A DNA stretch of 7,813 nt from the IMG/VR virus record IMGVR_UViG_2529292715_000014, positions 1 to 7,813 of that record; one strand, given 5' to 3'. A program made the position numbers and the translations under genes. The first letter of the stretch is position 1; each line of letters starts with the position of its first letter. The DNA is from a virus. Taxonomy: Duplodnaviria > Heunggongvirae > Uroviricota > Caudoviricetes. Below the pieces are notes generated by a model, which made no database searches, was not told the DNA's origin, and worked only from the letters and a program-made list of their open reading frames with translations. This document shows, piece by piece, positions 4,048 through 4,831 of this stretch.

Positions 4048-4055
4048 TATTCCCG
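4048..4055. repeat. IS1 target-site duplication, left copy (TATTCCCG)
   Basis: Identical 8-mer directly flanks both ends of the IS1 copy; a ninth base G is ambiguous with the IS1 terminus. Confidence 0.8.
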
Positions 4056-4110
4056 GGTAATGCTGCCAACTTACTGATTTAGTGTATGATGGTGATTTTA
4101 AGGTGCTTGC

Positions 4111-4386
4111 GTGGCTTCCATTTCCATCAGATGTCCTTCCTGCTCAGCTACTGAAGGCGTGGTGCGTAACGGCAAAAGCACTGCCGGACATCAGCGCTAT
4201 CTCTGCTCTCATTGCCGTAAAACATGGCAACTACAGTTCACTTACACCGCCTCTCAGCCCGGTACGCACCAGAAAATCATTGATATGGCCATGAATGGCG
4301 TCGGATGTCGCGCCAGTGCACGCATTATGGGCGTTGGCCTCAACACGGTTTTACGTCACTTAAAAAACTCAGGCCGCAGTCGGTAA
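4111..4386 (+). CDS. insA: IS1 InsA (transposition inhibitor / N-terminal part of InsAB' transposase)
   Basis: Translation [43 protein letters not shown]...LKNSGRSR with a GTG start; matches IS1 InsA with a few substitutions relative to the K-12 copy as I remember it. Confidence 0.9.
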
Positions 4387-4808
4387 CCTCGCGCATACAA
4401 CCGGGCAGTGATGTGATTGTCTGCGCTGAAATGGACGAACATTGGGGCTACGTCGGTGCTAAATCACGTCAGCGCTGGCTGTTTTACGCGTATGACAGGA
4501 TACGGAGGACGGTTGTGGCGCACGTCTTCGGTGAACGCACTCTGGCCACACTGGAGCGTCTTCTGAGCCTGCTGTCGGCCTTTGAGGTCGTGGTATGGAT
4601 GACGGATGGCTGGCCGCTGTATGAATCACGCCTGAAGGGAAAGCTGCACGTTATCAGCAAGCGTTACACTCAGCGCATTGAGCGACATAATCTGAATCTG
4701 AGACAACATCTGGCAAGGCTGGGACGGAAGTCACTGTCGTTCTCAAAATCGGTGGAGCTGCATGACAAGGTCATCGGGCATTATCTGAACATAAAACACT
4801 ATCAGTAA
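4305..4808 (+). CDS. insB: IS1 InsB frame (catalytic part of InsAB' transposase, expressed by -1 frameshifting from insA)
   Basis: Translation ...[58 protein letters not shown]...[13 protein letters not shown] matches IS1 InsB. The track start at 4305 is simply the first in-frame start codon of the -1 frame. Confidence 0.85.
4362..4368 (+). other. IS1 programmed -1 ribosomal frameshift heptamer A AAA AAC
   Basis: A6C run in the insA frame (TTA AAA AAC) at the insA/insB overlap; this is the canonical IS1 recoding site that produces InsAB'. Confidence 0.8.
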
Positions 4809-4823
4809 GTTGGAGTCATTACC

Positions 4824-4831
4824 TATTCCCG
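4824..4831. repeat. IS1 target-site duplication, right copy (TATTCCCG)
   Basis: Same 8-mer as 4048-4055, in the same reading frame of the interrupted tail-fibre gene. Confidence 0.8.

Follow-up and report, generated by a model that had tools for sequence, protein, structure and literature searches.

The window (the whole 7,813-nt stretch of DNA analysed herein) carries a complete IS1 element that almost certainly reflects a single transposition event into a tail-fibre exon of an already dead SfMu-like prophage. The window as a whole corresponds to the right end of a Mu-like prophage, read from right to left, and contains the following features:

1966–2085, minus strand: prophage right terminus (TGAAGCGGCGCACGAAAAACGCGAAAGC...), identical to the right ends of Mu and SfMu
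2086–2811, minus strand: mom, Mu-type DNA modification (Pfam Mom, E = 7e-75; PHROG 1384)
2732–2938, minus strand: com, Mu Com-type zinc-ribbon regulator of mom (Pfam Zn_ribbon_Com; annotated in E. coli RMDEC465 (L001) and SfMu)
3008–3211, minus strand: gin-type DNA invertase remnant (tblastn with SfMu Gin; comparison with L001)
3266–3280, plus strand: Gin recombination half-site CTCGGTTTACAGGAA, the other half lost by an 11-bp deletion
3281–4055, plus strand: Sv-type (Mu G(+)-type) variable tail-fibre exon, 5′ part (SfMu gp52/Mu S comparison; PHROG)
4048–4055, unstranded: left target-duplication copy TATTCCCG (single copy in L007/L008 and L001)
4056–4823, plus strand: complete IS1F-type iso-IS1 by comparison with K-12, 768 bp (99.9 %-identical copies annotated in RefSeq)
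4056–4078, plus strand: IS1 left terminal inverted repeat (I6; 23 nt, 87 %)
4111–4386, plus strand: insA, intact, 91 aa, GTG start (Pfam Zn_ribbon_InsA, HTH_Tnp_IS1)
4305–4808, plus strand: insB′ frame, 167 codons, open throughout (DDE_Tnp_IS1, E = 2e-73)
4362–4368, plus strand: A6C (AAAAAAC) programmed −1 frameshift motif from insA to insB′, IS position 307
4801–4823, plus strand: IS1 right terminal inverted repeat (I6)
4824–4831, unstranded: right target-duplication copy TATTCCCG (direct reading and script)
4832–5066, plus strand: Sv-type exon, 3′ part, with its natural end (28 residues, not shown) and stop at 5064–5066 out of frame
5068–5595, plus strand: U-type assembly gene for the tail fibre, paired with the exon that IS1 interrupts (92.6 % identity to Mu U)
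5624–6157, minus strand: U′-type assembly gene for the tail fibre (95.5 % identity to Mu U′)
6160–6614, minus strand: S′v-type variable exon, 3′ part, truncated by IS600, 94.5 % identical to Mu S′v
6615–7813, minus strand: IS600 (IS3 family), right end TGAGGTGTACTGG..., running off the window end (Pfam rve, HTH_Tnp_1)

Direct reading of positions 3900–5000, together with a script, places the element at 4056–4823, a span of exactly 768 bp that runs from GGTAATGCTGCC... to ...GGAGTCATTACC, with GGTAATGCTGCCAACTTACTGAT as its first bases and ATCAGTAAGTTGGAGTCATTACC as its last. The terminal inverted repeats returned by a repeat finder are complementary at 20 of 23 nt, and the element thereby displays the length (~768 bp), imperfect ~23-bp inverted repeats and GGT(A/G)ATG start of the IS1 family. 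Two identical copies of TATTCCCG directly abut it, compared with one copy in the empty site, which is in keeping with the 8- or 9-bp direct duplication of this family; the chance of an 8-mer match at two fixed positions is ~1.5e-5. The resulting junction sequences are GCAAGTTATTCCCGGGTAATGCTGCC and GGAGTCATTACCTATTCCCGGCAACTATGG. A ninth base also matches (G at 4056 and G at 4832), because the first base of IS1 is itself a G. The ends of IS1 are symmetric (GG...CC), and due to this symmetry and the length of 768 bp, the duplication is taken to be 8 bp. A 9-bp duplication with a 767-bp element was considered and rejected, as the ends would then become asymmetric (G...CC, rather than GG...CC). 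Read from the sequence alone, the duplication would be 8 bp, or with the ambiguous G included 9 bp, and duplications of both sizes are reported for IS1 (PMC12428005). TATTCCCG additionally occurs at three further sites within the window, at 5719 and 6754 on the plus strand and at 2630 on the minus strand, where ~0.24 would be expected by chance over both strands; no relation of these to IS1 is seen, and they are probably coincidental.

Related loci were recovered from many assemblies by exact-protein look-up of the chimeric ORF formed by dpiA′ and the phage end (1627–2010). One of these, L006 (GCA_000268245.1, AKMX01000024.1), is 100 % identical to the window across all 7,813 bases, and its assembly appears in a strain table as Shigella flexneri K-1770 (PMC6397287). 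Others derive from S. flexneri FDAARGOS_713 (L002; CP054892; PMC9455713), S. flexneri 3b SFL1520 (L014; CP032513; PMC6424224) and CP066809 (L013), which is apparently of serotype 3a, with PMC8549364 covering S. sonnei and S. flexneri 3a isolates. The set also includes S. boydii 600080 (L005), CP026810 (L004) and the NCTC assemblies UGYT01 and UGYQ01 (L007 and L008; GCA_900457175.1 and GCA_900457165.1). A complete Mu-like prophage of E. coli RMDEC465 (L001), which is more distantly related, was compared as well. Both IS1 junctions are found again in L002, L003/L011, L013, L014 and CAJFAS010000004.1. The two NCTC assemblies possess the same locus at ~99.8 % identity without IS1, reading GCAAGTTATTCCCGGCAACTATGG, with one TATTCCCG and an intact ORF of 328 aa, and a single TATTCCCG copy is also present in E. 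coli RMDEC465 (L001 8445–8453). The two flanks of IS1 are colinear with L007/L008, with phage SfMu and with L001, and abut in these at a single TATTCCCG. Because an empty-site locus of ~99.8 % identity retains a single TATTCCCG and an intact ORF, the event is shown to be a simple transposition. This agrees with an earlier note on this DNA, which had proposed a simple insertion rather than a rearrangement, with a clean 8–9 bp duplication, and had named a difference between the flanking repeats as grounds for rejecting it; the repeats proved identical and the coordinates exact. With regard to wider distribution, the insertion is absent from 5,426 complete E. coli genomes, as assessed using a 100-nt junction probe, and the left junction has no exact match in a species-representative genome collection. 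The latter blank probably reflects the folding of Shigella into the E. coli species cluster of that collection.

The insertion site lies at codon 251 of the 328 codons of the exon, within a tail-fibre variable segment, as the earlier note had it; the segment is of the Mu-type invertible kind, and its recombination site is 789 bp away. The L007 exon, uninterrupted at 328 aa, has 92.8 % identity with SfMu gp52 and 65 % with Mu S residues 183–504. The exon matches tail fiber in PHROGs (E = 3e-93); the restored exon has no Pfam family at E ≤ 0.001, and its identity was assigned via PHROGs and the comparison with SfMu and Mu. As an ORF, the 5′ part is open from 3227, is called from a GTG at 3305 and comprises 251 aa, with its stop (4058–4060) inside the left inverted repeat of IS1. 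The earlier frame argument, built on the divisibility of 768 by 3 and an in-phase duplication, does not hold, as the shift is one of 776 bp (776 mod 3 = 2) and the two halves of the exon lie in different frames within the window, being ORFs 3305–4060 and 4810–5034. The frame is restored because the element is removed along with one repeat, whatever their lengths. In silico excision of 4056–4831 yields ...NNGNWLCGSQVIPGNYGNFDSRYVKDVRLGSQQYYG... in one frame, with ...NNGNWLCGSQVIPG joined to NYGNFDSRYVKDVRLGSQQYYG... and a protein in which ...GSQVIPG leads in frame into NYGNFDSRYVKDVRLG... The predicted return to a continuous frame is consequently borne out across the junction, but not for the last 24 codons, which are shifted by the loss of one C between 4979 and 4980 (GGTTCAACT, versus GGTTCCAACT in L007/L008). 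Following this deletion the exon frame closes early, at 5034, leaving the conserved C-terminus out of frame. The deletion is present in all IS1-bearing loci examined and absent from L007/L008. The exon adjoins gin, and in this orientation, which the deposited SfMu genome shares, it has no connection to the constant portion of the gene for the fibre; the interrupted ORF is a promoterless cassette that lacks its N-terminal part.

The coding capacity of the element itself is intact. A modelled InsAB′ frameshift fusion is 232 aa in length, with products of 232 aa also called in sister IS1 copies, and matches Zn_ribbon_InsA (2.5e-18), HTH_Tnp_IS1 (3.2e-28) and DDE_Tnp_IS1 (2.1e-73), all of which pass Pfam cut-offs. 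The organization, with insA and an overlapping insB′ connected by a −1 shift at A6C, is that of the IS1 family, and the intactness of these coding regions suggests that the window copy would still be able to transpose. Alignment to IS1A of K-12 gives 700 of 768 identical positions (91.1 %; 68 mismatches, no indels), whilst alignment to IS1F of K-12 gives 761 of 768 (99.1 %; 7 substitutions, no indels). IS1A and IS1F of K-12 differ from each other at 73 positions, which equals the published figure for IS1F (PMC12428005). Divergence of ~10 % from IS1A, coupled with near-identity to IS1F of K-12, is the profile of the IS1F subgroup, and by this comparison the element is an IS1F-type iso-IS1. Relative to IS1A there are five changes in InsA (V4I, S7R, D15E, T69S and I80V) and 16 amino-acid differences in the InsB′ frame, so that the departure from the K-12 element in InsA and InsB to which the earlier note had pointed is confirmed. 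Copies with 99.9 % identity are annotated in RefSeq as IS1 family transposase. Because all eight other IS1 copies in loci L002–L008 are 99.5–100 % identical to that in the window, the element is regarded as the resident Shigella type; the type is not Shigella-specific, however, since 3,759 records of E. coli contain a copy of at least 99 % identity. The suggestion of a diverged iso-IS1 of the Shigella kind is accordingly sound as to divergence from IS1A (91.1 %) and residence in an S. flexneri genome, with the addition that the type extends beyond Shigella, given the 99.1 % identity to IS1F of K-12 and the E. coli records. The predominant IS of S. flexneri is IS1 (PMC1550401), and as a minor reading, the IS1F type, inactive in K-12, may be the IS1 lineage that is actively proliferating in Shigella.

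Further copies of the same iso-IS1 are found at the related loci. One interrupts citF in L008 (4926–5693), with an 8-bp duplication of CAATTTTC, and another, at 18382–19149 in L007/L008, is flanked by a 9-bp duplication of CAACCAGGC; thus the same iso-IS1 type generates both duplication lengths. Of the three copies of this iso-IS1 with a target duplication, two have one of 8 bp, albeit in a small sample. In L004/L005 (11985–12752), an inverted IS1 of the same type is located at window position 3610/3611, 445 bp upstream in the same exon. This copy has no target duplication and is followed by unrelated genes (phage integrase, mod operon), an arrangement that indicates an IS1-mediated rearrangement.

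The prophage in which the exon resides was inserted into dpiA. Its right-end sequence, TGAAGCGGCG..., matches the Mu and SfMu right ends exactly and is preceded by CTGGG (1961–1965) in dpiA, which forms a 5-bp duplication; the left terminus, ...GAATCAATACA, can be read in L006 and L007, where CTGGG and the remainder of dpiA come next (L006 16502–16530; L007 19364–19392). Mu-type termini are therefore bordered by CTGGG on both sides, and joining these reconstitutes the dpiA frame. A 5-bp duplication is typical of Mu transposition. The splitting of dpiA (citB) by the prophage generates a 127-aa DpiA′-phage-end fusion ORF, which is indexed in 780 collection blocks. The neighbouring dpiB (citA; window 1–1527) encodes 508 aa with an out-of-frame tail; it encodes 552 aa in L005 and shows other splits in L004, L007 and L008. 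These changes appear to be separate events, each inactivating the sensor kinase once its partner, dpiA, had been destroyed. A scan of the whole window against Rfam returned nothing at gathering thresholds.

Little of the inversion machinery is retained. The gin remnant preserves residues 1–55 and 182–196 of 197, with an internal deletion of 379 bp (junction at ~3048–3052) that corresponds to L001 7055–7433; in some assemblies (L002, L005 and L013) this fragment is called as a 65-aa ‘Resolvase’. The intact recombination site of L001, TTATCTAAAACCTCGGTTTACAGGAA, is reduced to ...GGCCCCTCGGTTTACAGGAA in the window (3255–3280) by loss of 11 bp, a deletion common to L002–L008, and both recombination sites are present in L001, at 7652 and 10727. 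The gene order is that of a G segment, with Sv-U on the plus strand (3281–5066 and 5068–5595) head to head with U′-S′v on the minus strand (5624–6157 and 6160–6614). Of the two inverted 26-bp sites of such a segment only the half-site at 3266–3280 is found, the second lying beyond the IS600 truncation and being absent from L002–L008, and the place of a functional serine invertase (Gin/Cin/Pin/Hin type) is taken by the gin remnant alone. Judged by this layout, the tail-fibre segment is a fossil of the Mu/SfMu G segment, and not a working one. The truncating IS600 comprises orfB (6657–7475) and orfA (7511–7813) and is 99.9 % identical to an annotated IS3-like element IS600. It cuts the S′v-type exon at 6614/6615, with the IS600 of L007/L008 situated 261 bp further along (L007 14213–15675), so that L007 retains 261 bp more of this exon. 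On the far side of the latter IS600 lie a truncated Mu transposase (Mu A) gene, ner and a repressor gene; in L006 these three are missing, and IS600 borders directly on the final ~320 bp of the left end of the phage. Such differences suggest successive IS600-adjacent deletions, or replacement via recombination between IS600 copies. Remnants of SfMu were detected in most S. flexneri strains by Southern hybridization (Jakhetia and Verma 2015, PMC4406740), and the cryptic SfMu-related fragment of that study, for which the paper gives neither sequence nor location, is plausibly the present locus.

The order in which these lesions arose can be read from their distribution. Both the 379-bp gin deletion and the 11-bp site deletion occur in every related locus, including the empty-site L007/L008 and S. 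boydii L005. As the empty-site loci carry both, the two deletions predate IS1, and to judge from this distribution the prophage was already dead when the element arrived. S. flexneri and S. boydii 600080 have in common the insertion at CTGGG, the gin deletion and the loss of the half-site, which implies either shared ancestry or transfer between lineages of the dpiA::SfMu-like locus. From there the paths of decay diverge: S. flexneri K-1770, FDAARGOS_713, SFL1520 and CP066809 (several of serotype 3a/3b) have IS1 at 4055/4056 and the 1-bp deletion, S. boydii has a different IS1 and a rearrangement, and the two NCTC strains have neither. These changes are nested and essentially irreversible, and might serve as rare-genomic-change markers for deciding whether Shigella lineages currently regarded as independent descend from one ancestor in which decay had begun, or instead exchanged the region through recombination, a use that we put forward tentatively.

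Three other explanations for the element and its surroundings merit consideration. IS1 could mark the junction of a rearrangement (an IS1-mediated inversion, a deletion or an exchange between two of its copies), with the flanking 8-mers merely coincidental. Rearrangement does happen at this locus, as evidenced by the inverted IS1 of L004/L005, which lacks a duplication and has unrelated genes beyond it. The flanks in the window, however, are colinear with L007/L008, SfMu and L001 and meet exactly at one TATTCCCG, and a chance match of the 8-mers is itself improbable to the extent calculated above; the empty-site comparison therefore refutes this explanation, and we attach next to no probability to it. 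Equally, the insertion could be an artefact of assembly, with IS1 misplaced in the draft of a repeat-rich genome, given that the contig identical to the window (AKMX01000024.1) is a draft and that Shigella genomes contain many repeats of IS1. Both junctions recur, however, in the complete chromosomes CP054892, CP032513 and CP066809, as well as in CAJFAS010000004.1, and as independent assemblies share both junctions, an artefact is refuted and its likelihood is negligible. The colinearity of both flanks with the reference loci excludes either explanation.

A third explanation accepts the transposition but holds that it was selected, either by silencing a harmful fibre fragment or by supplying transcription or a start for ORF 4810–5034 and the downstream U gene. 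This ORF of 74 codons does begin at a TTG within the right inverted repeat and run into the exon, such that the C-terminus of the fibre becomes its fusion partner, and within a sublineage the insertion seems to have reached fixation. Against this, the exon prior to IS1 was already without a promoter, constant part, invertase or usable recombination site; the ORF is additionally frameshifted, and its 74-aa product is reported by no gene caller at any locus. Moreover, a promoter/terminator scan of 3900–5200 found no outward promoter-like site at the right end of IS1, so that IS1 as a source of transcription for the downstream exon or the U gene was dropped from consideration. The same scan identified a single promoter-like match leading into insA, at 4063–4090 in the left inverted repeat, with a count not above that of shuffles. 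Selection is accordingly deemed very improbable. The insertion was presumably neutral, since the cassette is silent and frozen, and the remnant would be unable to invert, to express a fibre or to make particles.

By far the most probable history is as follows. An SfMu/Mu-like prophage transposed into dpiA, after which, and still before the arrival of IS1, the invertase lost 379 bp, the adjoining site one half-site, and most of the phage genome was deleted beside an IS600. An active IS1F-type IS1 then transposed once into ...GTTATTCCCGGCAAC... in an ancestor of an S. flexneri sublineage, with the staggered target cut filled in to generate the 8-bp direct repeat TATTCCCG. The exon struck was the silent copy, unconnected with the constant portion of the gene for the fibre, and the insertion, presumably being without phenotypic cost, would have been kept by drift as one step in IS-driven decay. 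Such decay is typical of Shigella, and the event is an ordinary one of a known kind, namely genome decay without any new mechanism. As a textbook simple IS1 transposition with the empty site kept in a sister genome, it carries little weight by itself; its value is as a dated stage in the gradual erosion that a Mu-like prophage has undergone in Shigella, and as a lineage marker. It also serves as a reminder for annotation, in that the 251-aa ‘tail fibre’ and 65-aa ‘resolvase’ ORFs are fragments.

Amongst known elements, the window IS1 is most readily compared with IS1F of K-12, a type IV iso-IS1 of ~10 % divergence, with which it shares a length of 768 bp, the same inverted repeats, the A6C site and the insA/insB′ layout. 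Unlike the window copy, IS1F of K-12 has a stop at insB codon 98, Pro34 and Lys52 in InsA, and an annotated pseudogene (insB7), whereas the window copy has Trp98, His34 and Thr52, with frames that are fully open. IS1F of K-12 is reported to be essentially non-transposing (PMC12428005). The ‘consensus’ IS1 of K-12, IS1A/IS1E, is alike in length, architecture, Pfam domains and target-duplication size, but is set apart by the 68 nucleotide mismatches and the five InsA and 16 InsB′-frame amino-acid differences described above. For the prophage, the closest phage is SfMu, with 94.7 % nucleotide identity across the whole right end; SfMu, along with Mu and D108, shares with the window, in the same order, the right end, mom, com, gin, the recombination site, the Sv-type exon, U, U′ and the S′v-type exon. 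Unlike SfMu, the window has a gin lacking 379 bp, a recombination site lacking 11 bp, an Sv-type exon bearing IS1 and a frameshift, and an S′v-type exon cut by IS600, and in the window lineage nothing else of the phage survives but ~320 bp from its left end, on the far side of IS600 (L006).
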